Source: a virus (lineage: Duplodnaviria; Caudoviricetes). Taken from it: a stretch of 64,000 bases of DNA. The notes below the pieces were generated by a model that made no database searches, was not told the origin of the DNA, and saw nothing but the letters and a program-made list of their open reading frames with translations. Each line of letters begins with the position of its first letter. Position 1 is the first letter of the stretch. The position numbers and the translations under genes are program-made. Where the stretch lies: IMG/VR virus record IMGVR_UViG_3300028197_000002. One strand, 5' to 3'. This document shows positions 5,585 through 57,508 of this stretch, in pieces.

Positions 5585-6562
5585 TTAATCAATGCTACCT
5601 ATTTCTCCACCGTTGCGAGTAATAGCGCCAGCAAAGACTCTTAAATCAACATTGTCATTAATAGTTCTGGTTGATCCATCGGCATATACGCAGTTCATAA
5701 CTCCGGGATGCATACTATATGCCTCACCATCATTAATAACATTAAAAGGAACATTGCCAGAACAGTTCTTGCACTTATCACCATTGGCATCAATACCATG
5801 TAATTTAAATGGACCTAAACTATCTGCCCAACTAATGCATTGGTTAGTTCCACCTGTAGGAGATCTTCCATTACTGGCTTTATAAACATCAGGTCTACTT
5901 GCGCACTCTACAATCATAAGAGTGTTGGAAAAACCATCAATGATATCCTGTTCCTTAGTTACCTTATCTTTTATCAAACAACCATCGTCCCCAGTTTTAT
6001 TTGCATAAGGATCGCTACCAGCAGGAAAAACTTTATCTTTAACACCAGTAAATGTTTCATAGTCAGTATAACCAAGAATGTTAGGGTCTAAACTTGGAGC
6101 AGCACTATCGCTATCTCTAGTAGGCCCATCAACATTAACATAACCACCACCGGGAGGAAGTGCAGATGGACATTTTAGTACCGAGGCTTGTGTTGCAATA
6201 GCTTGAGTATTCTCCCACCAATTCTTATTAAAATCATATATGTTTGCTACATTGCCTTGCTCTAAATTTGCAAGAACAAATGCTCTCCAACTATGTTCTG
6301 TTCGTGATGGATTGCCAAGAGAACTAGGAGTTTCAGATAAATCTTTAGCCTCTATAGTCCAAGCAGCAGCAGGGAAATATTTTTTTTGATCTAAACTCAT
6401 GTGCATTGCAAGACCTTGTTGTTTTAAATTATTAGAGCAACTTGCTCGTCTTGCCGCTTCTCTAGCTTGTTGAACAGCAGGCAATAACAATCCTACTAGA
6501 ACGCCAATAATTGCAATAACCACTAGTAATTCAATCAGCGTGAAACCTTTGCGATTCTTCAT
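5585..6562 (-). CDS. DUF1559 (Planctomycete-type) prepilin N-terminal cleavage/methylation protein with H-X9-DG motif
   Basis: KG|FTLIELLVVIAIIGVLVGLLLPAVQQAREAARR..CSNNLKQ.GLAMH at the N-terminus; HPGVMNCVYADG (H-X9-DG) at the C-terminus. Confidence 0.95.
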   Translation of the reverse strand: MKNRKGFTLIELLVVIAIIGVLVGLLLPAVQQAREAARRASCSNNLKQQGLAMHMSLDQKKYFPAAAWTIEAKDLSETPSSLGNPSRTEHSWRAFVLANLEQGNVANIYDFNKNWWENTQAIATQASVLKCPSALPPGGGYVNVDGPTRDSDSAAPSLDPNILGYTDYETFTGVKDKVFPAGSDPYANKTGDDGCLIKDKVTKEQDIIDGFSNTLMIVECASRPDVYKASNGRSPTGGTNQCISWADSLGPFKLHGIDANGDKCKNCSGNVPFNVINDGEAYSMHPGVMNCVYADGSTRTINDNVDLRVFAGAITRNGGEIGSID

Positions 6563-7509: not shown

Positions 7510-9036
7510 TTATCTTCTTTTTTCTAATTCGAAAGCTCTACCGTTAGATATTAATTTCAATATATGTTTATATGCTAATTCTGGTTTCATTTTTTTAAAT
7601 CTATTGTGATGTATAGCATCTGTCACAAAAGTTTTATCTTCTCCATCTATATTAGCTAAAATTCTTCCATCTTTAATCCATCCTGACAATACTACTTTTG
7701 GGATTGAAGGCTTTGGATCAAATTGAAGTTTGAGTTGTGTGTTTTCTTCCATGTCTTCAAACTCTATTTCTGTTTCTGTAACCTTATCTTCTATTCCATG
7801 TATTATCATTTTAGAAGCCTTTGCTATATTTTGTCTCCTAGCTTTAACATCATCACCTTTAGCTCGCCATAAAGCCAAGTAATTAGGGGCATCTTTGGTT
7901 TCAAAACCAAAATGATGACAAACAACATAGGCAGTTGTCTCAGCGTCTATTTCTTTTTGTTGTCTTGAAGATTGTTTTCCCAGATCAGATTTTTTACTTT
8001 TCTTTTCAAGCCAATGAAGTATTTCATGGGCTGTCTCATGAACCAAAGTGCTAAAAAGGTTCACTCCTTTAAACTTATTGTTGATAGCTATTTTGCCACC
8101 AGCAGAGTAACCGCCTAGGTCTTCAGCCATGTCTTCATAATCAACATTTATACTTTTTTCTTTATTCCATTTTACTAAAGAATTGATAAGAACATTAAGT
8201 TCTTCTACATCTTCATTAGTATCGCTACTCCAGTCTTTTCTATCAAGTGGCTTAAAAGAACTAGGATTACCCGGAATAGGGTCTGTTGCTGAATAATCAT
8301 AAACCTTAACAGCTCTAAAAAACTTAAGTTGAACCTTTTCTTTTTCTCCTGTGCTAGGGTTTTCTTTTTCTATATTTTTAAAATTAGGAGCAAATATAAC
8401 TATGCCTTTGTCCCAATTCGTAACTGTACGTCCTAGTTTTGTCCAATTTGTAGGAGAAGAAACATGCGCAGCTTGTCCTTTTGATTGAACATATATGAGA
8501 ATTTGATTTGCCAAGCTATAATTATGGAATTTAGAAGAAAACTTTAAAAAATCTTTTATGAAACGTTGTTTTCCAGCTTCATCTGTAGAGTTGGCAACTT
8601 TTTCTATTAAGTTTTCTATATTGTCAACTAACTTTTTAAGTTTAGCATCCGTTCCTTTTTTTAGTTCTCCTTCTAGTGAGTCTTGTACGTCTTGAAAGAA
8701 ATCTTCCGTCTCTTGAGAACTTTTATTTTTTACTACACTAGAACTCGAAGGAGGACTAGTCATTGTTTTTTCTAGGCCACTTAAATCAACTCCCAAATCA
8801 ACTAAAGATTGTTTAATATTTTCGAATTTAGATACTCCAATAGACCAAGTTCCTTTGAAGTATTTTAATCCTAATTTTTTCAATTCGTTTTTTATTGGAT
8901 AGGTTGCTCCATATAAAACAACAAATTCTTTTTCGCTGAAGGACTTGGAGGAATCATATTTTGGATTTTCTTTTTTATAAACTCGAACCCCTGTCGAATC
9001 TTCTTCCTCTAAAACTAGCCACTCTGAAAATTGCAT
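7510..9036 (-). CDS. ArdC-like ssDNA-binding + HExxH metallopeptidase-domain protein
   Basis: FSSKFHNYSLANQILIY...WTKLGRTV...IFAP (ArdC N-terminal-like); TLVHETAHEILH...EIDAETTAYVVCHHFG (HExxH); start moved to ATG 9036 because of GAGGG SD and TGA-T-ATG coupling. Confidence 0.75.
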   Translation of the reverse strand: MQFSEWLVLEEEDSTGVRVYKKENPKYDSSKSFSEKEFVVLYGATYPIKNELKKLGLKYFKGTWSIGVSKFENIKQSLVDLGVDLSGLEKTMTSPPSSSSVVKNKSSQETEDFFQDVQDSLEGELKKGTDAKLKKLVDNIENLIEKVANSTDEAGKQRFIKDFLKFSSKFHNYSLANQILIYVQSKGQAAHVSSPTNWTKLGRTVTNWDKGIVIFAPNFKNIEKENPSTGEKEKVQLKFFRAVKVYDYSATDPIPGNPSSFKPLDRKDWSSDTNEDVEELNVLINSLVKWNKEKSINVDYEDMAEDLGGYSAGGKIAINNKFKGVNLFSTLVHETAHEILHWLEKKSKKSDLGKQSSRQQKEIDAETTAYVVCHHFGFETKDAPNYLALWRAKGDDVKARRQNIAKASKMIIHGIEDKVTETEIEFEDMEENTQLKLQFDPKPSIPKVVLSGWIKDGRILANIDGEDKTFVTDAIHHNRFKKMKPELAYKHILKLISNGRAFELEKRR

Positions 9037-9037
9037 A

Positions 9038-9286
9038 TCAACCCTCTTTTTCAATTTTATCTTTTTGTTCGTTTTCATTAATAAGACTTTCTTCTTCTTT
9101 TTGTCTTCTTAAAACACAAACGCATGTTGGAAACTGTGCATTCTCAGAGTAATTAGAGCCACTAGAAGGCATGCCAGTTTCTCTAATAGGCTCCCAACCA
9201 TCTGAAATTAATTTTTCAAGCGGTTTAACAGAAGTGTTCGCGTCTTCTTCTAAAGTCAAAATGACATATTTGTAATCATATTCCAT
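9038..9286 (-). CDS. Hypothetical protein
   Basis: MEYDYKYVILTL...LISDGWEPI; probable ATG 9286, no SD. Confidence 0.55.
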   Translation of the reverse strand: MEYDYKYVILTLEEDANTSVKPLEKLISDGWEPIRETGMPSSGSNYSENAQFPTCVCVLRRQKEEESLINENEQKDKIEKEG

Positions 9287-9353: not shown

Positions 9354-9902
9354 ATGAATAAAACTTTTGAAGAATGGCTTAAACTTCGAGAAGAGGGCGG
9401 AGCATCAGGTGGATCAGGCGGAGCATCAGGTGGATCAGGCGGAGCATCAGGTGGATCAGGCGGAGCATCAGGTGGATCAGGCGGAGCATCAGGTGGATCA
9501 GGCGGAGCATCAGGTGGATCAAGTGGAGCATCAGGTGGATCAAGTGGAGCATCAGGTGGATCAAGTGGAGCATCAGGTGGATCAAGTGGAGCATCAGGTG
9601 GATCAAGTGGAGCATCAGGTGGATCAAGTGGAGCATCAGGTGGCGAATCAGGCGGCGACTCGGGTGGAACACCACTGGGAGGTGACTCGGGTGACTCTGA
9701 AGGCGACTCAGAATCCAATGACTCAGGATCAGATCCAAATGATTCCGCTACAACATCTAAAGACATTGCTAAACGTCCATACAGAGTAGGTTTTTATCCT
9801 TGGGGATTTGGACATTGGGTTCAGAAAAAGAAAAAGAAGAAATGCAAATACGGCAAAAGAAAAGATGGTAAATGCAGAAAAACTAAAAAGAGGAAAAAAT
9901 AA
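9354..9902 (+). CDS. Gly/Ser-repeat protein with polybasic C-terminus, probable internal head protein
   Basis: MNKTFEEWLKLREE + (GASGGSG/S)x11 + acidic linker + KKKKKKCKYGKRKDGKCRKTKKRKK; GGAG SD. Confidence 0.7.
   Translation: MNKTFEEWLKLREEGGASGGSGGASGGSGGASGGSGGASGGSGGASGGSGGASGGSSGASGGSSGASGGSSGASGGSSGASGGSSGASGGSSGASGGESGGDSGGTPLGGDSGDSEGDSESNDSGSDPNDSATTSKDIAKRPYRVGFYPWGFGHWVQKKKKKKCKYGKRKDGKCRKTKKRKK
9399..9643 (+). repeat. 21-nt coding tandem repeat, 11 full copies plus a partial copy
   Basis: GGAGCATCAGGTGGATCAGGC x5, then GGAGCATCAGGTGGATCAAGT x6, then a partial unit. Confidence 0.95.
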
Positions 9903-11417: not shown

Positions 11418-12299
11418 TTAATCAACATGTAAATTATATTCTTCAAGATAAGAATCTACTACCGATGCCACATAAGAAGCATGGGGAGACATATCTCTCA
11501 GTTGCAGAAGCCTCGAAAAAGGACTGGATTTTTCTGCTAGGAAAATTCCGTCCTTGTTTTTATAATAGTGTTTGCTGAAAGAAGGAGGTATTCCTTTGTC
11601 ATAATGTATAAAAGGAACATCAATTTCATCTGTTATATTACAAGACAAAACATCTCCTGATATTTCGCAATGCCCTACTGATTTTAAAAGGCTTTTTTTC
11701 CAAGAGGATTTTTCAAAAAATCTTCTATACTTTTCTTCTTGGTCTCCTCCAATAGAATTAATAACGTCTGCTAATAAAAAATTAAAAAAGTTTTCTTTAA
11801 AAGAATCAGTAGTATTTTCATCATGATTAAAAACTATAGGATGTGAGTAGTAAAAATTATTTAAAGATTTAAGAACTCCTGTTTTAATTAGATTATTTTT
11901 AATTTCATCAAAATCTATAAACATATCAATTTCTTCATCTTCTAATTGATATGTGTTTGTTGTTATATTAGATTCATATGGTTGAATAGGTTTGTTCAAA
12001 ACCATGTCGGAGTGTATCAGTGTAAATGGAAATGTCAAAATGTTTTTACGCAAGGCTACTGTCAGAGAATAGATTCTGTTTAATTCCAAACAATCATTTT
12101 CCCTACCTAAATTTCTATGAGTGATGCAATTCTTATGCTTAGATAAGTTCAGTATATAAGGCGTACTTTTAATAGTTTCATTTTCGGCTATGGCAATAAT
12201 AAGATCGTCTTCAATTCCATGCATTTTAAAACTTTGGATTAGAAGTTCAGTCTGCCAATAGAAGTAGTCTATATTTTCTATGCTTACAAAATATTTCAT
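11418..12299 (-). CDS. Glycosyltransferase-like protein resembling HPAT/SERGT1-type protein O-glycosyltransferases
   Basis: YFYWQTELLIQSFK resembles YFDWQ....+.SF; LIHSDMVL sits at the DxD-equivalent position; C-terminal FIHY. Confidence 0.45.
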   Translation of the reverse strand: MKYFVSIENIDYFYWQTELLIQSFKMHGIEDDLIIAIAENETIKSTPYILNLSKHKNCITHRNLGRENDCLELNRIYSLTVALRKNILTFPFTLIHSDMVLNKPIQPYESNITTNTYQLEDEEIDMFIDFDEIKNNLIKTGVLKSLNNFYYSHPIVFNHDENTTDSFKENFFNFLLADVINSIGGDQEEKYRRFFEKSSWKKSLLKSVGHCEISGDVLSCNITDEIDVPFIHYDKGIPPSFSKHYYKNKDGIFLAEKSSPFSRLLQLRDMSPHASYVASVVDSYLEEYNLHVD

Positions 12300-12328
12300 A
12301 AAATTATACTAGTAAGCAAATTTTAAAA

Positions 12329-13015
12329 TTACATTAAGTGTAGTTCTTTTTGATTGATATCATAAAACCCTCTTTCTGTTGGATCAAATAATTTACTATT
12401 CTCTCCATCAATTTTAGTAAGTTCGATATACATTGCGTCTACTGTAAATTTAACTCTCTCTACATCTTTTTTAATATCATTCGTATATCTAAGATGAGTT
12501 TTTCCTTCTTCTTGGTATTCTTCTGTAAGCGTATCTATTTCGAATTGTTCTTTGTCAACTATGGCGCAAACAGTTGCCTCATTTTTATTTTCATTTTTAT
12601 TTTTAATATACCATAATTTATGGTCGTTTTCATCCGCAATATCGGGTTTAAAAGAAATCTCAATTTTATTTTTACTTAAATTAAAATTTTCATTTGCTTT
12701 AAATCCAGCGCTATGAAGAATAAGGCAAATTTGCTCTGGAGTGGCATCTGTGGTTAATTCAAATTTCTTAGGAGTTTTATTTCTAAGGAAATCTCTAACT
12801 GTAGATCTGCACAGCAACAAGGTCTTTTTAGGCATTTTTATTTGCTTGGATGTATCATCCATTATTTCTATAGAGTTGCTTTTAGAAAAAGCTTCAATAA
12901 TAGGATTCATTTTAGAAGGAGGAACAAATCCTTCTTCTAATTTAATATATTGTTTTTTCCAATTTCCATCATCTTCGCCTTCTTTTTCTATTAAAAAATC
13001 TTTAAATTTTTTCAT
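12329..13015 (-). CDS. Degenerate CCA-adding/poly(A) polymerase head domain (pseudoenzyme)
   Basis: RSTVRDFLRNKTPKKFELTTDATPEQI aligns to GGxVRDLLLGKxPKDFDxxTxATPEQ; ERVKFTVDAMY aligns to RRDFTINAxY; ends after the head domain. Confidence 0.75.
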   Translation of the reverse strand: MKKFKDFLIEKEGEDDGNWKKQYIKLEEGFVPPSKMNPIIEAFSKSNSIEIMDDTSKQIKMPKKTLLLCRSTVRDFLRNKTPKKFELTTDATPEQICLILHSAGFKANENFNLSKNKIEISFKPDIADENDHKLWYIKNKNENKNEATVCAIVDKEQFEIDTLTEEYQEEGKTHLRYTNDIKKDVERVKFTVDAMYIELTKIDGENSKLFDPTERGFYDINQKELHLM

Positions 13016-13788
13016 TCCTCATCCTCATCTTTTTCTTTAGGATCATCAGGGCTTATGTCTCTTGCTGTTTTTCCTAACGGAAGAGGTTTTTTAGGCTTAA
13101 GCTGTATGCCAAGATCCAATTCATCGCCTTGTATGTTTCTGGAAACTATTTTAGGTTTTTCAAAATCAAAGTATTTTTCTAAATTTGTATGTTGCATTTT
13201 TATTACCTCTATAATAAGTGCAGTTGTAAATGCCACTGCTCTATCATAAGTGGCAGCGTTTTCCTGCTCCATTTCTCTAGTTACATGAGCGAATTTAGTA
13301 TCAGACTCTTTAGTTTCTCCTTCTTTTCTTATTCTTTTATCGTTTAAAATATCTTTTATTTTGTCTCGAATATTTTTTTTGTTTGTGCCGTAGCCTGATG
13401 GAGAAGTGCTTATGGTCATAGCATAATCGTCCTTATTAGGATCATTTCCAACCACTGGGACTTGAAGAGGAAGTTTCATATAAATTTCTAGTGGAACTCC
13501 TTCAGTAAGTCTTTTATAAATTAAAGGAACTTCTAGTCTTGAAACAGCAGTAGGTTTTACTAAATCTTTTTGAATAGCTTGGCCTAAAGCTCCCATGACG
13601 CCGCCGATTGCTCGTTCAACATCTCCCGGACTTGAGTCTTGACCGAATGTTCCTAAAGGTCCAATTCGTCCTATTCCAACGTTGCTTAATTCACTAGGCG
13701 TTTGATATCTTGTTCGTAATCTTGCTGGCCCAGCTTCATTTAATTGTTGTTCTTGTCGGCTTTTTAACCATTCATTAAAATTTTTCAT
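13012..13788 (-). CDS. Hypothetical protein, probable virion/internal protein
   Basis: MKNFNEWLKSRQE N-terminus; AGGA SD. Confidence 0.6.
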   Translation of the reverse strand: MKNFNEWLKSRQEQQLNEAGPARLRTRYQTPSELSNVGIGRIGPLGTFGQDSSPGDVERAIGGVMGALGQAIQKDLVKPTAVSRLEVPLIYKRLTEGVPLEIYMKLPLQVPVVGNDPNKDDYAMTISTSPSGYGTNKKNIRDKIKDILNDKRIRKEGETKESDTKFAHVTREMEQENAATYDRAVAFTTALIIEVIKMQHTNLEKYFDFEKPKIVSRNIQGDELDLGIQLKPKKPLPLGKTARDISPDDPKEKDEDEE

Positions 13789-13798
13789 AATTATTTTC

Positions 13799-14131
13799 CT
13801 ATAAGGGCGCTTCTAAACCTAATTTAAAAAGTAAATACGCAGCCATGATAACCCATAGTAGTTGTATTCCAAAATTAATAAACATATTCCATTTTTTTTC
13901 TTGACCACCTTGAGTAACTTCAACAGAGTGTATTCTCAAGTCTAATTTATGTATATTTTCTACTAATTTATTATTGTCAGAATTATTGATTTTGTTTTCT
14001 AATTTTTTAATGTCTTTTTTCAAAGATTCTATTTGAGACTCTAAATCTTTATTTTGAGCAACTTCACGTTCTATCTTATTCTCTGTGAGCCTTTGATAGT
14101 ACTTATTATGTGGATGAATCTCTTCTGACAT
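13799..14131 (-). CDS. Coiled-coil protein with C-terminal TM helix (holin/XhlA-like architecture)
   Basis: Heptad-rich N-terminus then WNMFINFGIQLLWVIMAAYLLFKLG. Confidence 0.4.
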   Translation of the reverse strand: MSEEIHPHNKYYQRLTENKIEREVAQNKDLESQIESLKKDIKKLENKINNSDNNKLVENIHKLDLRIHSVEVTQGGQEKKWNMFINFGIQLLWVIMAAYLLFKLGLEAPL

Positions 14132-14182: not shown

Positions 14183-14653
14183 ATGCCTAATAAAGAAGAA
14201 GAATTAATAAAATCAAAAGATGACGCTCTGATTGAAAAAGAAAAGCAAGAATTGGTTAAAAAAGAAGAACAAGAAAATTGCATAATAAGCGATGAAAATC
14301 TTCTTGGTGTATATGGGGAAGTAATGACTAATTTGAGGTCAGACAGAGATCAAATTTCTAATCTGGTGGATACTTTTTCGAATATGGTGATAAATGACGG
14401 AGATTGTTCTACTTCTAGCAAAGAGGCATTAGTTAATTTGCTAAAAACAAAAATAGACACTAGCGACAAAATGTCAAAAATAGCGGATTTAATGACGAGG
14501 ATAAAACTCAAGCAACCAGACACTTTCAAGCCATATATGAATGGCAGTAAAAAAGATAACGGAAATACAATAAATATTTATGATTCTAGTGGCATCAACA
14601 GAAAGTCTTTGATGGAAAAAATTCAGAAGGAAAAAAATAATGAACAAAAATAA
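14183..14653 (+). CDS. Hypothetical helical protein
   Basis: First gene of the long + strand operon; TATATT-N5-ATG upstream. Confidence 0.6.
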   Translation: MPNKEEELIKSKDDALIEKEKQELVKKEEQENCIISDENLLGVYGEVMTNLRSDRDQISNLVDTFSNMVINDGDCSTSSKEALVNLLKTKIDTSDKMSKIADLMTRIKLKQPDTFKPYMNGSKKDNGNTINIYDSSGINRKSLMEKIQKEKNNEQK

Positions 14654-15995
14654 TTTACAAGACTGGTTAGCAGAACAAGATTCTACTTCAGCTCCAGACG
14701 GCGCAGTAGGTCCTCCTACGTCACAACCTGATTTTGCTGACACTATGATTCAAAAAGGACAAGATCCACTTGATCCTAATGCTCCTGTTGAAGATCCGGC
14801 ATTAGCTGCATCTATGGGAATGGAAGATGAAGAATCTAAACCTGAAGATGAAGATTCTGCTCCGGAAGATAGTGTTGAGGATGAAATTGAAGAACCAGAA
14901 TTCCCCGACTTCCCAGAAGAAGAAAAAGATTTAGAAGATGATTTTGATTCTTGGAAAGAAAACTATTTTAGAGAATCAGTAAGTGGTAATTCAGCTAAGT
15001 TATTAGATTTGCTTTATCCTATGAGAAGCAAAGAAGAAGAATTAGAACCTTATCAAAGAAAGTTTGTTGAAGACAATATAAACATTCAACTAATAAGATT
15101 AAATGCAAATGTAGAAAAAGCAAGCAAAGCAATAAGAAAAAGTACAAAGCAGCAATTAGATAAAAACAACCCTTCTACAAGTTTAGTTGCGCATATCAAT
15201 ATGGTTTTAGATTCAATGCCTGATGTGAGCAACATATTTATAAAGATGACAGGATACTCAGGATACAAAGGCGAGCTTCATAGAAAGTTCATAGGAGCTT
15301 TAATAGGAGGCGTTCAAGTTAGCAGTAGCCCAGATAAAGAAAATTTAATTTTAAATGACAAAGAGTATTCAATAAAAATATCAACTAGATTGAATTCCGA
15401 ATGGGGCGATGTATCTTTAGGAAGTTGGTCCTTAAAAGAAGACGATCCAGAGAAGTATCTGTCTGAGCCTGAACTTGCACGATTAACAGAAGGCAGTCCA
15501 GAAGAAAGAGACATACTTAGAAAAAGAGTAATCATTGAATCAATATCAAAACAATTTGAAGAACAATCTTTTATAGTCAATGTAGTTGATGAAGATGGAA
15601 CAATTGTTTACTTGGGTTGTGATATAGCTAATGCTCTTAGAGGAGCTTATTCAGATGGAAAACTAGTTGTTAAAAACGACAAGTCTTTAGACTCTGAAGC
15701 CATCATTGATGAAAATGGAACTATATTGGCAATGTCAGATCTAAAAATAAATTTTGTAAAAGAAACAGGTGAGTTCGATGCAGAAGGTCAACCAGTGACA
15801 GAAGAATTAAGTTTCATGCAAAAGAAAAATGGAATGCTGTTCTTAACAGCTTCTTATTCAACAATAAACGATGCTGCATACGTGATGCAGGGAACAGTCG
15901 TAAAAGAAACACCATATAAAGGAAACCCTAGTGACCTTAAAGACATAAGAAGTTGTGTCTACAGCTGTCACGATTTATTGATGAGGCAGTGCTAA
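14640..15995 (+). CDS. Hypothetical protein with acidic N-terminus, probable virion protein
   Basis: 451 aa; NLQDWLAE motif; P/E/D-rich N-terminal region. Confidence 0.6.
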   Translation: MNKNNLQDWLAEQDSTSAPDGAVGPPTSQPDFADTMIQKGQDPLDPNAPVEDPALAASMGMEDEESKPEDEDSAPEDSVEDEIEEPEFPDFPEEEKDLEDDFDSWKENYFRESVSGNSAKLLDLLYPMRSKEEELEPYQRKFVEDNINIQLIRLNANVEKASKAIRKSTKQQLDKNNPSTSLVAHINMVLDSMPDVSNIFIKMTGYSGYKGELHRKFIGALIGGVQVSSSPDKENLILNDKEYSIKISTRLNSEWGDVSLGSWSLKEDDPEKYLSEPELARLTEGSPEERDILRKRVIIESISKQFEEQSFIVNVVDEDGTIVYLGCDIANALRGAYSDGKLVVKNDKSLDSEAIIDENGTILAMSDLKINFVKETGEFDAEGQPVTEELSFMQKKNGMLFLTASYSTINDAAYVMQGTVVKETPYKGNPSDLKDIRSCVYSCHDLLMRQC

Positions 15996-16489
15996 TGAAA
16001 TTTTCAAGTTTTGTAGATGTTAAAAATAAAGAAATAATTGAAAAATTAAAAGTTCTTTCTAAAGTTATAGGTCAAGATTTTGAAGTTAAAGAATTCTTAG
16101 AAGATATGGAAAATCCTTATTTGTATGTTTCGCCTGAAAAAACAATGGATTTACCTTTTGATGGAGTTAGAGTTTATCAAATAGGATCTAGCTTTGCATA
16201 TAGAGTTCAAAATGAGAATACGTCTGAGCCTTATGGAACTGCCTATTCTTTAAATATAGAAAAAGCATATGAAGATTTAGCTCCTGATATGGAAGGCGTG
16301 AAAATGGCAAAAACTATATCCAACATTGTAATTGAAGAATTTGAAAGTTTTTTCAAACAAAGTTCTAAAGCAGAAGTTGATCAAAGATCAGTTTTATTTT
16401 CTAGAAATCCAGTATCTAAAAACAATGATGTATCTAATCAAGTCACTGTTGGTAGAGCTTTGGGTGATTATTCTAATTCGATTTATTAA
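15995..16489 (+). CDS. Hypothetical protein
   Basis: TAATG coupling to the upstream gene gives start MKFSSFV. Confidence 0.6.
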   Translation: MKFSSFVDVKNKEIIEKLKVLSKVIGQDFEVKEFLEDMENPYLYVSPEKTMDLPFDGVRVYQIGSSFAYRVQNENTSEPYGTAYSLNIEKAYEDLAPDMEGVKMAKTISNIVIEEFESFFKQSSKAEVDQRSVLFSRNPVSKNNDVSNQVTVGRALGDYSNSIY

Positions 16490-16491
16490 TC

Positions 16492-17046
16492 ATGGCAGTT
16501 CCAAATAATTTAATTGAACAAGTTTTCAGGCGAGTTGGTTCAAATAAACAATTATCTAATACTGTAAAAAAAGGAAGTTTAATAACTTTCAATTATACTT
16601 TTTTTAAAAATGATCCTTATCCCTTGGTGATTGCCAGCACTGTTAATCCGGGAAGCAAAATCTGGGGAATAAACCTACATTATTTAACTTTTAACTATAT
16701 TAAAAAAACTTTAAGAAACTGCAATAATCCATTTTTTTCATATGCAGGATCTATAAAAGGCGATTCTTTTTTGCAAAATGCATATAGATCTTACAAATGG
16801 TCAGGCATTAGACAAATAAAAGTACTAGATTGCGATGTTCTATTGGATGCAATAGGCACTACAAGAAGCATAGATCCAGCAGAAGTTGAAATAATAAGAA
16901 GAAATGCAGAAGAGCAAATTAATAAACAAATTAACCCAAAAGCGAACGAAGTTAATTTGAAAACACTAAATAACATACAGCAAGATGCACCTACTGGAAT
17001 TATTCCTACCGTACCCAACGTCCCATCTATAAATGACCCGGAATAA
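16492..17046 (+). CDS. T4 gp2-like DNA end protector protein
   Basis: GSLITFNY...DPYPLVI...IWGINLHYL...YRSY matches the gp2 pattern (F.Y...D.FPLV...G+NLHYL). Confidence 0.65.
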   Translation: MAVPNNLIEQVFRRVGSNKQLSNTVKKGSLITFNYTFFKNDPYPLVIASTVNPGSKIWGINLHYLTFNYIKKTLRNCNNPFFSYAGSIKGDSFLQNAYRSYKWSGIRQIKVLDCDVLLDAIGTTRSIDPAEVEIIRRNAEEQINKQINPKANEVNLKTLNNIQQDAPTGIIPTVPNVPSINDPE

Positions 17047-24444: not shown

Positions 24445-24774
24445 ATGGCAAATTCAATAGAATATTCAAGTAAAAATGCAAATGTTTTTGTTAGTCCTAC
24501 AAGCAGGTATTCAAGTAGCAGAGTAGTTCTTTATACAGATGAAAAATTTATAACTTTTGAAACATATAAGAAAAAAAAATATGATCCTACTGCACAAGAT
24601 CAAGTTACTGTCGTTCCAAGTGGAATGCAATACAGACCAGATTTGGTTTCCAAAAAAAAATACGGAACAGTAGATTTTTGGTGGAAGATAATGGAAATAA
24701 ATGGAATAAAAGACGTATATGATTTTAAAGCAGGAATGACAATCACTTTACCGGGGAATCCATATGCCTCATGA
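24445..24774 (+). CDS. Baseplate wedge gp53/LysM-like protein
   Basis: QYRPDLVSKKKYGTVDFWWKIMEINGIKDVYDFKAGMTITLP. Confidence 0.8.
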   Translation: MANSIEYSSKNANVFVSPTSRYSSSRVVLYTDEKFITFETYKKKKYDPTAQDQVTVVPSGMQYRPDLVSKKKYGTVDFWWKIMEINGIKDVYDFKAGMTITLPGNPYAS

Positions 24775-26317
24775 AAGAAAAGGATGTTTAGCAGGATGCA
24801 TTTCTGATTACAAAGCAGACGGACCAAATGGATCTGGCGTAGAACCACTAGGTGGCACTTTCAGCGAAGTTGCAAGCATGGCCCCTTATATAGAAGCAAG
24901 AATAGAAGGCTCAAATGGTGCCCAAGTAACAGTAGGCAACAACTCATTCAGTGCCGATCCAAATACTGCTGTTGTCAAATCTATAGAATACGGATTTGAT
25001 AATATGATGCAAGGAAAAATAGAAATAGTAGATGAAAACGGTGGGGAAACTGGATTTTTTCAAACAACCTTGCAGAAAATGGAAAAATGCATTCCTACGC
25101 TGGGTACAGGACACCAGATAATATTTAAAGTAGGCTGGGTTGGTGTTGATTGTGATGGAGCTGTAAAAAGGAGTCTAACAAGTGAAAAAAAAGCTATAAT
25201 TCAGCGAATTACTTCTCAAGTAAGTAACGGGTTGATAAGATTTACAATAGGCTTTGGCCCTGTTGAATCTGTTCTTCAAACTTTTCACATTGATAAAACT
25301 TTTGGAACTGAAGAAGATCCTATTAAGTTATCTGACGCTCTTCAGCAATTAGCAAGTTACACTGAAGGAGGAAGTCCTAAAATTGAAGTAACATATGCTA
25401 AAAGAAATGCAGACGGAGAAATCGTAACTGTTCCCTCTTTTAATTGGGATAAACATGGAGAAGAAAGTCCAAAAGCTTGCTGGGCAGCGAACATGTCAAA
25501 TAAATATGAAACTATAGCGTCTTGGATATCTCCTTACAGAGTTAAGGATGGAAGTGAAACTAAAGGAATCACAATAATACATGATCCACAAGTTCCGAAC
25601 AGAGTAACATTGCTTTTAGACCCTTCTCCAACTGAAAATGAAAAACTAGGGGGCAAAGTTGTTTGTAATTATATCGTTAATGGAGGATCTTGCTCGAATG
25701 TTTTAGAGTTTAATCCAACACTAGACATAGTTAGTGTAATGAAAAAAGCTAGATCTGGTGGAAGTTCTGGTGGTGCTCTAACTTCGAATGGAGAATTCGT
25801 AGAAGACGAAACAAAACCCACACCGGGAGCAGCCGGAGTTGACGCAGGACCACAAACACAAATAGTTCCTACTCAACCAGCAGTATACACAGAAGGAACA
25901 AGAAATGCTCAAAAAGAAATGAATAAATCTCAAGATGTTCATTTTAAAGCAGAAGGTGTCAATATGGTAGCTAAAGGTGGAATTACTGCTGATCTTAGAA
26001 TAGTAGGATCTACTTTACCAGATTATCATTCTATGCAGTCTAAAGGAAAGCTTGTTAGCATCACAATTATAAATCCATTTACCATAAAAGGAGGTGATGA
26101 TGAAAGTTGTGGAGATTTTTTACAAAAAGCAGAGTGCAATCAATTTCTTAGTAACAAATCTTGGCTGATTCTTGGATGGAGTCATTCTATTCAAGAAGGT
26201 TCTTTTGTTACTACTTTAAAGGTACAGCTAGCAGCTCCCGGATTTGATCTGTCCACAAGTGCCGAAAATACACTTGGTGCTAACCCTAGTGGAATTCCCG
26301 TAGAAAATGTATGTTAA
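24764..26317 (+). CDS. Baseplate hub protein (gp27/gpD-like)
   Basis: Synteny between gp53-like and gp5-like genes; C-terminal W.I.GWSHSIQEGSFVTTLKV beta pattern. Confidence 0.6.
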   Translation: MPHERKGCLAGCISDYKADGPNGSGVEPLGGTFSEVASMAPYIEARIEGSNGAQVTVGNNSFSADPNTAVVKSIEYGFDNMMQGKIEIVDENGGETGFFQTTLQKMEKCIPTLGTGHQIIFKVGWVGVDCDGAVKRSLTSEKKAIIQRITSQVSNGLIRFTIGFGPVESVLQTFHIDKTFGTEEDPIKLSDALQQLASYTEGGSPKIEVTYAKRNADGEIVTVPSFNWDKHGEESPKACWAANMSNKYETIASWISPYRVKDGSETKGITIIHDPQVPNRVTLLLDPSPTENEKLGGKVVCNYIVNGGSCSNVLEFNPTLDIVSVMKKARSGGSSGGALTSNGEFVEDETKPTPGAAGVDAGPQTQIVPTQPAVYTEGTRNAQKEMNKSQDVHFKAEGVNMVAKGGITADLRIVGSTLPDYHSMQSKGKLVSITIINPFTIKGGDDESCGDFLQKAECNQFLSNKSWLILGWSHSIQEGSFVTTLKVQLAAPGFDLSTSAENTLGANPSGIPVENVC

Positions 26318-26348
26318 ACCCTAAATTAAATAATATTAAAATAATAAA

Positions 26349-28448
26349 ATGGCACAAAACGATAGCAAAAGTATAGTAAATTTATCAATACCAGATAAAT
26401 TTGTAAATTTAAATGACAGATTATCTCAAATGGAACAAAGATTTTCTGATTTTGGATATTCTATGTCCAATATAGTTCAAAGTGAAATTAAAACTTATTA
26501 TGATCAACCTGCTCAAGCACAGTCAGTTCCATATTTGCACACTGCCGTATGCATAGAGACTATAGATCCATTGAAGCAAGGAAAAGTAAGGTTTTTCAGT
26601 CCTCTTCTTCATAAGAAAGAAACTCCTGTTAAAGCTTTGCCATGGGCGTACCCTATTTCTGCTCAAGGAGGATTTGATGATTGTGGATGTACGTGGGTTC
26701 CGCCAGCAGGTTCAAAGCTATGTTTGTTGTTCGAAGGAGGCAATAGAGATTGGGCTTTTTATATTGGAACTACTTGGGATAGAGATAGATCTAGAGGATG
26801 GGACATCCCCGTTCCTGAATACGAAGCTATACACAGAGGTCATAGAGGAGGTTATCTTTTAGGTCCCGACGAAGATCAAGTTTTTCCTCCTTGGAATACA
26901 GAAAATTATAATGGTCAAGATATAGATTCCCTAATAGATTTTGAAAGAGATGAAGATGGCGGAAGAGATAAAATAACTTATCCTAATATTTATGGTTGGA
27001 AAACTCCTCAAAAACATATGATTAAAATGGTTGACGGAAATTACAAATGTAATCACCGTTGGCAACGAATGGAATTAAAATCTGCTCAAGGCAATCATAT
27101 AATTCTTAAAGATGATAGAGTTCATCCTAGTGCACAATGGGCACATCCAAGCTGCGGCGGAGGTGGTGGAGATGTAAGTAAATGCAATGATGGTGATGAA
27201 CCAATAGAAAAACTAGACGATTGTCCTGCTGATCCATTTGAAGAAACTTCTGCCAATCCTTATTTTAAGCATAAAAACGAATGCAAGCCCTACCAAGGCC
27301 CTCAAAATTGTCAAAGCAATAGAGTTGATAAAGTAAGTTTGCCACAATCGGGAATACAATTTCTTTCTTTAAGCGGTCATACATTATGGATGGATGACTC
27401 TGTCAAAGAGCCTAAAGGAACAAACGAATGGGAAAAATCAAACGAACCTTTTGATTATGGGTGTCCTGAAGGAGAAGGAGTATTTAAAGGAAGAACTGTT
27501 TGGAAATCTGCTCATGGTCATCAAATTGAAATGAGTGATGTCGAGCCTGATGACAAGCCTAGGCTCAGAGGTCCAGATAATTACGTTAGACTTCTAAGTG
27601 CTTCTGGAAATAAAATTGAATTAAATGATGACAGCAATGATTGTGATTGCACTTGTGAAAATTGCGAATGTGGATGCGGAACAGACAGCGCTGGTCCTAA
27701 GCGTGGCATAAGTATGCAAAGTACATCTAATCATACTTTTGAGATGATAGATGAGAACAATAAGCAATGTGGACCCAACAGAAAAGAAGGAGGAGTGCCT
27801 ACCAATAAGGCTACTGATGCTTTTGTAAAAATAAGAACTGGTTATGGCTTGGAAATGATGATGGCTGATGACAATCATCAAGAAGAGACGCAACAACAAT
27901 ATATTCAGTTAATGGCTCCTCAATACGATGCCTGCTACGACACTGGAAACCCTCACATAATAAGAATGCAAGAAGATGTTAACTGTGGATATATTTTTGT
28001 TAAGGCTGCTGGCGATTATATCTGCATGACAGAAGGCGATCATTATACAGTAGTTGGAGTTGGCCAAGACACAGAAGAATTTTGTGAAGGTGGCTGTTTA
28101 GGTCCAAGAAATCATTTTACTGCGGTTAGTCAACATACTTTACATTATTCGTGTAATTTTTACTTTAATATTGCCGAAATACATGCGTTTTTAGCAGAAA
28201 AAATGATCCTTTTAATGGCTGGAAAGGACTGCCCTCCGGAAGATGCAGAAGGTCCAGATGATTGCGTTCCTTGCATAGGCCCAGTTGCTGTTCTTATTCC
28301 TTCGGGAGATCCACCTCAAGTTAAATTAAAAGCAAGTTCTAGAGTTTATGCCTCGGCAAATCCAACAGATCCGTGTGTTTCGCTGTTCCAATTATCACCA
28401 TTTGTAAAATGTGATGATCCCTGCCCAGAACCATGCGCTTGCGAATAA
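26349..28448 (+). CDS. Baseplate central spike, gp5/VgrG-like OB-fold protein, Cys-rich
   Basis: IDPLKQGKVRFF...LPWAYP...GCTWVPPAGSKLCLLFEGGNRDWAFYIG (gp5 OB-fold); repeated S.HGH.IEM.D-type beta-helix segments. Confidence 0.85.
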   Translation: MAQNDSKSIVNLSIPDKFVNLNDRLSQMEQRFSDFGYSMSNIVQSEIKTYYDQPAQAQSVPYLHTAVCIETIDPLKQGKVRFFSPLLHKKETPVKALPWAYPISAQGGFDDCGCTWVPPAGSKLCLLFEGGNRDWAFYIGTTWDRDRSRGWDIPVPEYEAIHRGHRGGYLLGPDEDQVFPPWNTENYNGQDIDSLIDFERDEDGGRDKITYPNIYGWKTPQKHMIKMVDGNYKCNHRWQRMELKSAQGNHIILKDDRVHPSAQWAHPSCGGGGGDVSKCNDGDEPIEKLDDCPADPFEETSANPYFKHKNECKPYQGPQNCQSNRVDKVSLPQSGIQFLSLSGHTLWMDDSVKEPKGTNEWEKSNEPFDYGCPEGEGVFKGRTVWKSAHGHQIEMSDVEPDDKPRLRGPDNYVRLLSASGNKIELNDDSNDCDCTCENCECGCGTDSAGPKRGISMQSTSNHTFEMIDENNKQCGPNRKEGGVPTNKATDAFVKIRTGYGLEMMMADDNHQEETQQQYIQLMAPQYDACYDTGNPHIIRMQEDVNCGYIFVKAAGDYICMTEGDHYTVVGVGQDTEEFCEGGCLGPRNHFTAVSQHTLHYSCNFYFNIAEIHAFLAEKMILLMAGKDCPPEDAEGPDDCVPCIGPVAVLIPSGDPPQVKLKASSRVYASANPTDPCVSLFQLSPFVKCDDPCPEPCACE

Positions 28449-28502
28449 GTATAATAATAATGTGAAATTATTATTATATTACTAAATAAAATAGGTAAAA
28501 TT

Positions 28503-28931
28503 ATGAGTTTTTTAGGCGCACCATATCCGATAATAAAAGATCCCAAGGGTTTTTTAAGAACAACTAGAGGAGTAGACCAGATTAAATCTGATCTGCTTAT
28601 TTTGTTATTAACACAACCCGGAGAACGTGTGATGTTGCCAGAGTTTGGAACACCGCTTAGAAAATTTATGTTTGAGCCGAATGATTCAGTTGTTAACGAA
28701 AAAGTCAGAGAAGCAATTGCTAATTCTATTTCTCAATGGGAACCAAGAATAGCAATCCAAGATATAGAAGTAGTAAATGAAGCTACTTCAGATATCTCTG
28801 GAAGTTTGAATGAATTAGATACTGGTCAAAATATACCACATATTTTGCTTATAAAAATTAGATTTTCTAATTTTGACAGTATAGACGTAGTAGAAGAATT
28901 AGAATTAAGATTACCTGCCGGAGGAGTTTAA
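28503..28931 (+). CDS. Baseplate wedge gp25-like protein
   Basis: IKSDLLILLLTQPGERVMLPEFGTPL..FMFEP...I..SISQWEPRI. Confidence 0.92.
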   Translation: MSFLGAPYPIIKDPKGFLRTTRGVDQIKSDLLILLLTQPGERVMLPEFGTPLRKFMFEPNDSVVNEKVREAIANSISQWEPRIAIQDIEVVNEATSDISGSLNELDTGQNIPHILLIKIRFSNFDSIDVVEELELRLPAGGV

Positions 28932-28933
28932 GA

Positions 28934-30508
28934 ATGCCCGATAATTGCCCATTTGACGTCAATCCTTTATCGGAACCTTTAATTACAAAAAATGAAAGTT
29001 TCAGTAATGTAAATTATACTAATCAAGACTTTTGGTCTTTAAAAAATAGATTGGTTGATTTTATTAATGAAAGATTTGGAGAAAATGGAAACACTCTTCC
29101 AAACACTTTTAATGATTTAGTAGAAGGTTCAATAGCAATAATGCTCATAGAAAATTGGGCGTTTATTGGAGATACTCTTTCATTCAAAATTGATCAAATT
29201 GTAAATGAGTTATTTATAGACACAGTCACAGAATCAGACAACGCTTTTAGACTATGTAAATTAGTTGGATTTGAACCAACTCCTCCAATTCCTTCTAGAG
29301 CTTTATTTACAGCAACAATAAATACAAGTTACGATCAAGACATAACATTGCCTGCACCTTTATCTGTTGATGTTGTTTCTGATGGCGCTCAAATACAATA
29401 TGAACTTTTCCCAGCAGACTCTGAAAACAATCCTATTTTCGATCAAGATATTATCATATCTTCTGGAACTTCTGTTAACTCTGCAATTGTGGGACTTCAA
29501 GGCTCAACAGCAGTCGATGAACATGCAGGAACTGGGGCTATCTTGCAATCTTATGAAACAAGATTTGATTCTATAATTTATGATTCTGTTTCAGTAAAAG
29601 TTGATGGCGCTCAATGGGAAAGAGTAGATTATTTTACGGATTCGCAACCTAGAAAAGAATTTAGAGTAGAATATGATTCAAGTTATAGAGCTTATGTAAT
29701 GTTTGGAAATAACAAAGTAGGGTTATCTCCAGCAAATGGTTCTAGTATAGAAATAAATTATAGAATTGGCGGAGGAACTATTGGAAATATAGTCACTGGT
29801 TCTGTGAATATACAGAGACAGGCTAGGGTTTTTGGAAATGATTTTAATGTCCCTGTTTTTATATCAAATTACACAAAAGGAGAATTTGGTTACGACGGGG
29901 ACACAGTAGACGACATAAGAGCAAAACTTCCGTTGTATTTAAGAACTCAAAATAGAGCAGTAACAGGAAGTGATTATAAAAATTTAACTGACCAATTTGT
30001 TTCTCCATATCACGGACAGATAGGAAAATCTACTGCTGTTTTAAGAAACCAAGGTTGTTCTGGAAACGTGGTTGATATTTACATATTATCAAAATTAAAC
30101 GCAAATGGATTACAAGAAGCAAATGATGAGTTAAAAAATGATTTAAGCGAAATGCTTGAAGAAAAGAAAATGATTACTGATTTTGTATGCTTGAAAAACG
30201 GCCAAATAATAGAAACAGATGTGTCTGTAGTGGTTGAAGTTCCAAGAACAGAAAGAAAATTTGAACAAGAAATTAAACAAAATATAGAAGTTAAAATTAA
30301 TGATTTTTTTAGCTTAAGTAATTGGGATTATGGTCAAGCTTTAAAAGAATCTGATTTAATTAAAAATTTATCTGCTATTAAGTCAGCAAAAAGTTTTGAT
30401 GTAATTTATACAACAAATGACGAAGATAATTCAGGAAGCATAGTAACCACTAAGTTTTATGAGATAATTAGACCTGACGTAGTAGAAATTTCATTTATGT
30501 ATGTTTAA
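28934..30508 (+). CDS. Baseplate wedge gp6 / Baseplate-J-like protein
   Basis: NYTNQDFWSLKNRL; FGNNKVG; YRIGGGTIGN; QNRAVTGSDY. Confidence 0.9.
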   Translation: MPDNCPFDVNPLSEPLITKNESFSNVNYTNQDFWSLKNRLVDFINERFGENGNTLPNTFNDLVEGSIAIMLIENWAFIGDTLSFKIDQIVNELFIDTVTESDNAFRLCKLVGFEPTPPIPSRALFTATINTSYDQDITLPAPLSVDVVSDGAQIQYELFPADSENNPIFDQDIIISSGTSVNSAIVGLQGSTAVDEHAGTGAILQSYETRFDSIIYDSVSVKVDGAQWERVDYFTDSQPRKEFRVEYDSSYRAYVMFGNNKVGLSPANGSSIEINYRIGGGTIGNIVTGSVNIQRQARVFGNDFNVPVFISNYTKGEFGYDGDTVDDIRAKLPLYLRTQNRAVTGSDYKNLTDQFVSPYHGQIGKSTAVLRNQGCSGNVVDIYILSKLNANGLQEANDELKNDLSEMLEEKKMITDFVCLKNGQIIETDVSVVVEVPRTERKFEQEIKQNIEVKINDFFSLSNWDYGQALKESDLIKNLSAIKSAKSFDVIYTTNDEDNSGSIVTTKFYEIIRPDVVEISFMYV

Positions 30509-47876: not shown

Positions 47877-48896
47877 ATGGCAATAGGATTTGACGCAGGA
47901 ACTTATCATTTAGTTAGTTGTAAAAAACAAGGCGAAGAATATATTTACAAAAAAGAGGTAAATGCTTTTTTGGAAATGCCTTTAGAAAACAGATTTGTTT
48001 TCAATATGATGAACAACGCAGGAGTCCCTTTAATCGAAAACAAAGAAGCAAATGTTGCTTACGCTCTTGGTGAAAAGGCTGTAGATATGGCTTACACTAT
48101 GAATCAAATAGAACTTAAAAGGCCTATGAAAGATGGATGCTTAAATCCAAAAGAAAGACATGCGCAACAAATAATGAATGTTATGGCGCATAGTCTCATA
48201 GGAGAGATTTCGCAAAATGAAGAAAAGTTGTATTACTCTGTCCCTGCAAATGCTATAAATCAAGAAACTGACGCTGATTATCACTCTAAGATATTGCAAG
48301 CAATGTTCAAAGCTTACGAAAGTGAGCAAGGCTTTAAAGTTGATGCATATCCTATTAATGAAGCTTTGGCTTTAGTGTATGCTGAGTTAACAAATAAAAA
48401 TTGGACTGGAATTGGAATTTCTTTTGGCGCTGGAATGGTGAATCTTTGTTACGCTATTTATGGAGCGCCAATTTTTCAGTTTTCTTTAGTTAACAGTGGA
48501 GATTGGATTGACAAGATGGCTTCAAAAGCAATAGGTGAAGATACTACCACTTATGTAAACAAAGAAAAAATGAAATCTGATCTAACTATTGATCAACCTG
48601 ATACGCTTGTTCAAAGAGCAATCAAAACTCAGTACGAGATCATGATTCAACACACAGTCAATGGAATAAAACAAGGTTTAGAAAATGCTGGAAACAAAGC
48701 AAGATCAGAGGAACCTATTGACATAGTAATTGCTGGCGGTACTAGTATGCCAGTTGGATTCGAAAAAATGTTTTCTACAATATTAGAGCAATCAGGTATT
48801 TCTGATAACATTAAAGTCGGCTCTGTAATTCGACCAAACGACCCTTTGTTCTCTGTGGCCAGAGGATGTTACATCGCAGCTGAAAACGCAACTTAA
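47877..48896 (+). CDS. Actin-fold ATPase (MreB/FtsA/ParM superfamily)
   Basis: Phosphate-1 IGFDAGT, connect-1 INEALA, phosphate-2 GISFGAGM, adenosine IVIAGGTSM, connect-2 FSVARGC; GAGGTG SD. Confidence 0.85.
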   Translation: MAIGFDAGTYHLVSCKKQGEEYIYKKEVNAFLEMPLENRFVFNMMNNAGVPLIENKEANVAYALGEKAVDMAYTMNQIELKRPMKDGCLNPKERHAQQIMNVMAHSLIGEISQNEEKLYYSVPANAINQETDADYHSKILQAMFKAYESEQGFKVDAYPINEALALVYAELTNKNWTGIGISFGAGMVNLCYAIYGAPIFQFSLVNSGDWIDKMASKAIGEDTTTYVNKEKMKSDLTIDQPDTLVQRAIKTQYEIMIQHTVNGIKQGLENAGNKARSEEPIDIVIAGGTSMPVGFEKMFSTILEQSGISDNIKVGSVIRPNDPLFSVARGCYIAAENAT

Positions 48897-57253: not shown

Positions 57254-57508
57254 ATGATTATTATAAATTTTAGAAAGTGGTTAGAAGCTAGTGGTGGATC
57301 TGGTGGTGTCGGAAGTGGAATTCACCCTCCAAAACAAAAGCCCTTGTTGTATAAGGGAGCTTTATCCGATTATCATAGTAAGAGTGGAACAGATCCTTCT
57401 AATCAGAATGGAAAACTTCCTCCTGTCAGCAAAGAATCTAAAAAAAGAAGATACTGGGGCAAGAATCCTACAACTTACATGGGCAAAGAAATAAAAGAAT
57501 TAAAATAA
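57254..57508 (+). CDS. Small Gly-rich/basic protein, probable internal head protein
   Basis: INFRKWLEASGGSGG...KKRRYWGK; TAAATA-N8-ATG upstream. Confidence 0.55.
   Translation: MIIINFRKWLEASGGSGGVGSGIHPPKQKPLLYKGALSDYHSKSGTDPSNQNGKLPPVSKESKKRRYWGKNPTTYMGKEIKELK

Follow-up and report, generated by a model that had tools for sequence, protein, structure and literature searches.

The open reading frame at positions 12329-13015 (minus strand) of a 64-kb stretch of DNA from a huge marine phage (the whole stretch analysed, hereinafter the window) raises the question of what a protein that resembles a CCA-adding enzyme, but has lost the residues and domains by which such enzymes work, might be kept for. 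The genes for CCA-adding enzymes of huge phages are routinely annotated as functions of translation or tRNA repair (PMC7162821, PMC7824862), and full-text literature searches retrieved no description of inactive or capsid-tagged phage homologues of these enzymes.

The frame is uninterrupted and its N-terminus reads MKKFKDFLIE, just as an earlier reading of the same DNA (hereinafter the sequence-only reading) had described, the strand, which is the minus one, being the sole point to correct. It codes for a protein of 228 aa (P0001), a catalytically degenerate homologue of class II CCA-adding enzymes formed by the head domain only. The class II nucleotidyltransferase scaffold that had been recognized in it was recovered by profile, sequence and structure comparisons alike. 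Indeed, the PolyA_pol head domain profile (PF01743, Pfam cut-off of 23 bits) matches residues 72-225 over positions 7-125 of its 126 with E 3.3e-12, and the alignment with human mitochondrial TRNT1 obtained with phmmer against the PDB sequences revealed that VRD, T-DATP-Q, FEI-T, FT-DAMY and motif C (D211...G216...D219) are all kept. The AlphaFold2 model, built from an alignment of 57 sequences, is compact (mean pLDDT 90.4, pTM 0.86), with values below 65 in residues 1-20 only, that is, in the N-terminal tag region discussed below, which is the only low-confidence part. Its top Foldseek match is TRNT1 (E 1.3e-9), and the superposition carried out with VIA-align (Z 16.7, rmsd 2.1 A, 29% identity over 144 residues) covers the head domain of TRNT1 and nothing else: residues 24-228 of the phage protein (12332-12946, minus strand) lie on TRNT1 residues 4-158. 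The comparison of a predicted structure with CCA head domains, which the sequence-only reading had named as a way of checking itself, is therefore in agreement with it (Z 16.7 against TRNT1 for a model with pLDDT 90.4). With respect to the canonical enzymes, the head domain embeds a family-specific insertion (residues ~106-150; 12566-12700, minus strand) modelled as extra beta strands. PHROGs assign no family to the protein, which in its mature form is acidic (pI ~5.4) and of 25 kDa.

If the fold has been kept, the catalytic motifs have not. The GG of motif A has become R70 S71 (12803-12808, codons AGA TCT), the metal-binding DxD has become K84 F85 E86 (12758-12766, codons AAA TTT GAA) and the RRD of motif B has become R187 V188 K189 (12449-12457, codons AGA GTT AAA), all on the minus strand. 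In the phmmer alignment AGGAVRD of TRNT1 corresponds to CRSTVRD, D-I-D to K-F-E and ERRDLTIN to ERVKFTVD; the same substitutions are seen against 120 family members, and N193 is likewise lost. The replacements that had been noticed from the letters (RS for GG, KFE for DxD, RVK for RRD) are thus confirmed residue by residue against TRNT1, and the three altered sites, together with the TAA stop, were also confirmed at the DNA level. R70 S71 is invariant in the clade of truncated proteins, whose close variants exhibit K/R at position 84 and K/R/M at position 189, so that Lys or Arg is found at three positions formerly held by Gly or Asp (R70, K/R84, K/R/M189).

The protein also ends early. The TAA stop (12329-12331, minus strand) falls ~8 residues past motif C, at the border between head and neck, and all close variants end likewise, whereas the full-length relatives run on into the neck with ED-x-x-R (motif D); neck, body and tail domains are absent. 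A family profile searched against the six-frame stop-to-stop segments of the 64-kb window disclosed no remnant of the missing neck, body or tail, and matched the 228-aa protein alone, stopping at profile position 219 of 458. On this basis frameshifting, readthrough and a gene split inside the window were all rejected, since no remnant exists in any frame of the window; the two flanking ORFs of 293 and 258 aa were also tried as the missing domains and rejected (hhalign probability <1%). The earlier statement that the ORF stops after the head domain is accordingly well founded, resting on both the six-frame profile search and the uniform ends of the variants. Since GG, DxD, RRD and the entire neck (with the NTP-selecting EDxxR), body and tail are gone, canonical nucleotidyl transfer by this protein would, judging from its sequence, not be possible, nor should the protein be counted among the working class II CCA-adding enzymes.

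Such losses might suggest a gene on its way out. Selection indicates otherwise. The dN/dS value computed with the Nei-Gojobori method is 0.043 against the homologue of locus L082 (34 synonymous and 8 non-synonymous differences) and 0.065 against the partial one of L084, and it is the lowest among the seven adjacent genes shared with L082 and L083, the others ranging from 0.08 to 0.33, which argues that the gene is kept for a function. Three metagenome contigs carrying close relatives align collinearly with the window, with 79-90% identity at the nucleotide level, and, as a whole, independent assemblies yielded ~10 sequence variants on more than 30 contigs (the longest of 372, 333 and 178 kb), all of 226-228 aa and all with the same end residue; the amino-acid changes among them fall mostly in the insertion (~residues 106-150) and at the C-terminus. 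The idea of a repurposed protein rather than a decaying one, put forward in the sequence-only reading, is supported by the two dN/dS values and by the ~10 intact variants; the relaxed selection and the assembly error that it had named as possible refutations were looked for, and the former was not seen in the comparison across phage homologues (0.043 and 0.065), while the latter is excluded by the occurrence of the 226-228-aa form in independent assemblies. The protein is, therefore, a pseudoenzyme, in that its catalytic residues have been lost while purifying selection and an intact fold have been kept.

Some irregularities were observed among the close variants. The homologue at L083:1271-1942 carries an in-frame TTA to TGA change at codon 134 and six non-synonymous changes clustered in codons 127-149, the remainder being nearly identical to L082; the TGA may stem from a defective allele, from noise in the local assembly or from recoding, and a loss of the gene in some genomes is possible. 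Besides, the first 64 codons (12824-13015) are the same DNA in the window, in L082 and in L083, all the 40 codons differing between the window and L082 fall in codons 65-228, and identity over the 4.7-kb shared block is a mosaic of 69-100% per 100 nt. This pattern suggests recombination breakpoints in the shared block, one of them close to where the N-terminal part gives way to the head-domain core.

The distribution of the family reveals the order in which the losses occurred. An exhaustive HMMER search retrieved 94 relatives (36 with E <1e-10), nearly all of 390-540 aa, and IMG/VR scans added 80 further loci; in the latter collection a scan with the single protein gave no close relative, whereas the alignment-based scan did recover relatives. 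The closest match in the annotated collection is that of LR756511.1 (L001:3752-5278), a 595-kb uncultured megaphage, whose homologue (508 aa) possesses GG, DYD, RRD, neck, body and tail, and shares the N-terminal extension. Among 120 unique sequences, all members outside the lineage of the window are full length unless they lie on contig fragments; in a large fraction of them DxD is replaced by NYD, DYH, EFH, KYH, NFN, NYN, KYE or NIE, and the members without DxD have often also lost the leading Arg of RRD and the FEI-strand Glu. In the maximum-likelihood tree constructed using 98 head domains, 57 rows are devoid of DxD, and at least eight changes of the DxD state are required. The truncated clade has a support of 100 and falls inside a larger one (support 96) together with four full-length sisters that exhibit NFN (P0005), NYN (P0012), EFH (P0008) and LYE (P0019); since these nearest full-length relatives are already devoid of DxD, catalysis was lost first, the inactivation preceding the truncation, and GG, RRD and the C-terminal domains were lost later.

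The full-length inactive members, in turn, keep G70 in 100%, G71 in 83%, R188 in 96%, D189 in 92% and N193 in 92% of cases, a retention that looks like the substrate-trap pattern, that is, like binding of a substrate without chemistry. The truncation itself may have occurred more than once: a protein of 256 aa with NME in place of DxD (P0043, on a 292-kb contig) ends ~10 residues beyond the head/neck border, its sister P0046 having 484 aa, and it may represent another inactive form reduced to the head, arisen independently on a separate branch of the family. As for the copy number, one complete relative of 533 kb possesses an NYD copy only, and another related genome harbors a tagged NYD copy and a canonical 409-aa enzyme elsewhere.

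The surroundings of the gene are those of a virion module, including a gp2-like DNA end protector (16492-17046) and the baseplate wedge genes (24445-30508). In dozens of huge-phage contigs (loci L002-L056 and L102-L181) the same block is found, corresponding to 14183-17046 and 11418-14131 of the window: a gp2-like gene followed by genes for proteins of 164, 451 and 156 aa and, continuing on the opposite strand, the genes of the XhlA-like protein, of the CCA-like protein and of the 293-aa family. The 451-aa protein, for which no Pfam, PHROG or ESM Atlas family or function was found, is 50-68% identical across loci, and was used as an anchor for an independent test. The anchored loci that extend for 4.5 kb or more on the relevant side number 66, and in 65 of them a CCA-like gene occupies the same position and strand; in the anchored loci all the CCA-like genes code for at least 400 aa, with DxD present in 19, absent in 44 and unparsable in 7. 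The head-only form is limited, among the 65 syntenic loci, to the lineage of the window. The CCA-like gene belongs, hence, to the syntenic core of a clade of huge T4-like phages, and most of its copies, devoid of the catalytic aspartates, are probably inactive.

Within this frame the window presents some local features. The same-strand run begins with the gene for an XhlA/hemolysin-like coiled-coil protein with a C-terminal membrane helix (13799-14131, minus strand), which keeps its place beside the CCA-like gene in at least 30 related loci and lies upstream of it in LR756511.1 too. It is followed by a 258-aa ORF (13012-13788, minus strand), with no Pfam or PHROG match, whose product has a tag-like start (MKNFNEWLKS) and whose stop overlaps the start of the CCA-like gene (ATGA), which suggests coupled translation of the two; since no counterpart exists at this place in any of the related loci, it is an insertion peculiar to this lineage, presumably of a cargo gene. 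Downstream, the 293-aa ORF (11418-12299, minus strand) also follows the full-length CCA-like genes of the relatives, and, since it is still syntenic here, the CCA-like gene lost its 3' part and nothing further was removed by the truncation. The 293-aa gene, to which no family is assigned, is the fastest-evolving of the seven neighbours (dN/dS 0.33), and in 38 related loci its homologues, lying on one strand or the other, adjoin CCA-like genes. Copies of the T4 late promoter TATAAATA number 9 in the window versus 8.8 expected, which is no enrichment, so that the promoters tell nothing about the timing of expression.

The N-terminus of the protein offers a further clue. The T4 capsid-targeting sequence is MKTYQEFIAE (10.1101/2021.01.19.427310), in which, according to genetic data, residues 4 and 7 are responsible for targeting and residues 8 and 10 for processing (PMC9026906). 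Residues 1-12 of the protein (MKKFKDFLIEKE; 12980-13015, minus strand), predicted with low confidence as a helix, agree with it at all four mapped positions (F4, F7, L8 and E10), and a candidate protease cut might lie after E10 (L-I-E) or E12 (K-E). A tag-like start was found on 7 of the 69 genes of the window versus 0.57 expected from internal positions, the pattern (a regular expression) having been devised post hoc on sequences already seen, which makes the P value optimistic; in the family, 59 of 95 members begin with the strict pattern F-x-x-[FYW]-x(2-4)-[KR]-E. Moreover, a gp21-type S77 prohead protease is encoded in 4 of 5 related huge-phage genomes, and none was found in the 64-kb window. 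The capsid-tag reading of this N-terminus, proposed from the letters, is then a reasonable one, given the agreement at positions 4, 7, 8 and 10 and the recurrence of the tag on unrelated genes of the window. Because it starts with a T4-like capsid-loading tag, the protein is probably carried in the virus head.

Other tagged genes of the window deserve mention. An ORF at 7510-9078 (minus strand) coding for an ArdC-N domain and a zincin-like metallopeptidase has an internal Met that opens a tag-like peptide (MQFSEWLVLEEE) and that may therefore be its true start; its product is a plausible injected anti-restriction protein. In two small ORFs (9354-9902 and 57254-57508, both on the plus strand) a tag-like start runs straight into a Gly/Ser-rich linker (EEGGASGGSGG and EASGGSGGVGSG), as if they were tag-linker-cargo cassettes.

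Based on these data, we suggest that the protein is a pseudoenzyme with a function of its own, the smallest module to survive from a virion-associated CCA-enzyme homologue that is a core gene of a clade of huge T4-like myophages, an explanation that we regard as somewhat more probable than not. According to it, the protein would be made late together with the neighbouring virion genes; its residues 1-10 or 1-12 would serve as a T4-type capsid-targeting sequence loading it into the prohead, where a gp21-type protease would trim it after L-I-E or K-E; the trimmed protein would stay in the head and enter the cell along with the DNA. Its work, in the cell or in the head, would consist of binding a partner through the remodelled cleft that was once the active site and that would now hold Lys/Arg at R70, K/R84 and K/R189. 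Against this explanation stand the acidity of the protein, unlike the basic internal proteins of T4, the absence of a late-promoter enrichment and the TGA of L083.

A broader proposal, which we advance only tentatively, is that of a clade-wide core virion-module protein derived from a CCA-adding enzyme and delivered by the capsid, whose conserved job does not require catalysis and might consist, for example, of gripping a nucleic-acid 3' end (the phage DNA termini or a host tRNA) or a host protein at the time of genome entry; in that case the head-only form would represent the minimal unit, and the enzymatic activity an optional extra dropped many times.

Different readings of the same data have to be considered, and not all of them require packaging. 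The protein might be a late cytoplasmic one with a non-catalytic role in assembly or regulation, the shared N-terminal peptide being a docking or translation signal. This agrees with the acidity of the protein, with the conserved neighbours having no known function and with the fact that its packaging is read from the similarity of a motif; yet the agreement at all four mapped positions, the presence of the tag on unrelated proteins, including an ArdC-like anti-restriction protein useful only if injected, and the gp21-type protease of the related phages speak against it, and we consider the idea unlikely, even if it keeps some weight. Somewhat less probable still appears to be the function proposed in the sequence-only reading, namely a decoy or shield of tRNA 3' ends, in which the inactive head clamps the CCA ends, or competes with the host CCA/poly(A) enzymes or with toxins modifying tRNA ends, thus protecting early translation. 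The parent fold does bind RNA 3' ends, as in structures that include the tRNA complexes 8cbm, 4wc2 and 5hc9, the full-length inactive relatives lose only the metal ligands while keeping GG, R188, D189 and N193, and a tag-mediated delivery linked to the DNA would place the protein in the cell before any phage gene is expressed. In class II enzymes, however, body and tail supply most of the affinity for tRNA, and the 228-aa protein is devoid of both; having lost GG, R188, D189 and N193, it is also less likely than its full-length inactive relatives to retain the canonical grip on a 3' end or an NTP. Moreover, it is acidic, no tRNA genes exist in the 64-kb window, and a fixed core position with a low dN/dS is unlike typical counter-defence genes; for this last reason a conserved virion or entry function fits the protein better than a decoy engaged in a fast arms race.

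Two further readings carry very little weight. That of a decaying CCA-enzyme pseudogene or an assembly artefact might invoke the loss of three catalytic motifs and of over half the protein, as well as the premature TGA and the non-synonymous cluster of L083; it has been largely refuted by a dN/dS of 0.04-0.07, the lowest of the neighbourhood, by an intact frame with an identical end in ~10 variants from independent assemblies and by the confident, compact AlphaFold2 model, and is by now very improbable. Hardly more credible is the persistence of an enzyme with a non-canonical active site made up of E86, E159 and D161: even though E86 still supplies one carboxylate at the DxD position and E159, the FEI-strand Glu, has been kept, a Lys occupies the place of the first metal ligand, and GG, RRD and the neck with its EDxxR nucleotide template are missing.

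The comparison with known systems helps in placing the pseudoenzyme. With the class II CCA enzymes (human TRNT1, 4X4W/8CBM, and that of G. stearothermophilus, 1MIV) and with PcnB (3AQM) it has in common the head-domain fold and sequence homology, but it differs from them in possessing RS, KFE and RVK, in being devoid of the neck (EDxxR), body and tail, and in adding a head insertion of ~30 residues and an N-terminal tag of ~20 residues including the linker. The full-length virion-module homologues (LR756511.1, P0005, L002-L056, L102-L181) share tag, insertion and synteny with it, and many of them are also devoid of DxD; unlike it, they have 390-580 aa with neck, body and tail. As in the T4 proteins IPI, IPII, IPIII and Alt, the N-terminal 10-mer bears an aromatic residue at position 4, Phe at 7, Ile/Leu at 8 and Glu at 10, one tag is shared by unrelated proteins of a single phage, and the genes lie near the gp2-like gene. 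However, the T4 internal proteins are small, basic and hypervariable, whereas here we deal with an acidic 25-kDa enzyme-derived domain, encoded by a conserved syntenic core gene, which is a candidate cargo on the grounds of its sequence. A role as a basic DNA-coating internal protein like IPII/IPIII was considered and appears unlikely, the mature pI being ~5.4. Short PolyA_pol-head proteins of 160-230 aa are also known from Autographiviridae and other small phages (LKD16, PP2, LIMEzero; PMC7693777). They are stand-alone proteins with the nucleotidyltransferase fold, like the one described here, but the structure matches in BFVD are weak (E 1e-3 to 1e-2, 6-12% identity), and these early/middle podophage genes have no CTS-like tag and do not derive from the huge-phage family.

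The data indicate that, in one large clade of phages, what is called a CCA enzyme is a fixed virion-module gene with a T4-like capsid address tag, whose metal ligands have been lost in most members and which can be reduced to the head alone under strong selection. If the packaging is true, then most members of the family would be wrongly annotated as tRNA-repair genes, and a fold that binds RNA ends would have been recruited as injected or internal cargo of the virion. The 228-aa form, being small, confidently modelled and easy to express, represents the best entry point to the binding partner.

Two other genes of the window concern the biology of the phage more generally. The product of an ORF at 5585-6562 (minus strand) is a DUF1559/N-methyl prepilin-like protein of the Planctomycetota type (E 1.6e-40), which hints at a host belonging to the Planctomycetota, and an ORF at 47877-48896 (plus strand) codes for a volactin-type actin (E 3.6e-64).
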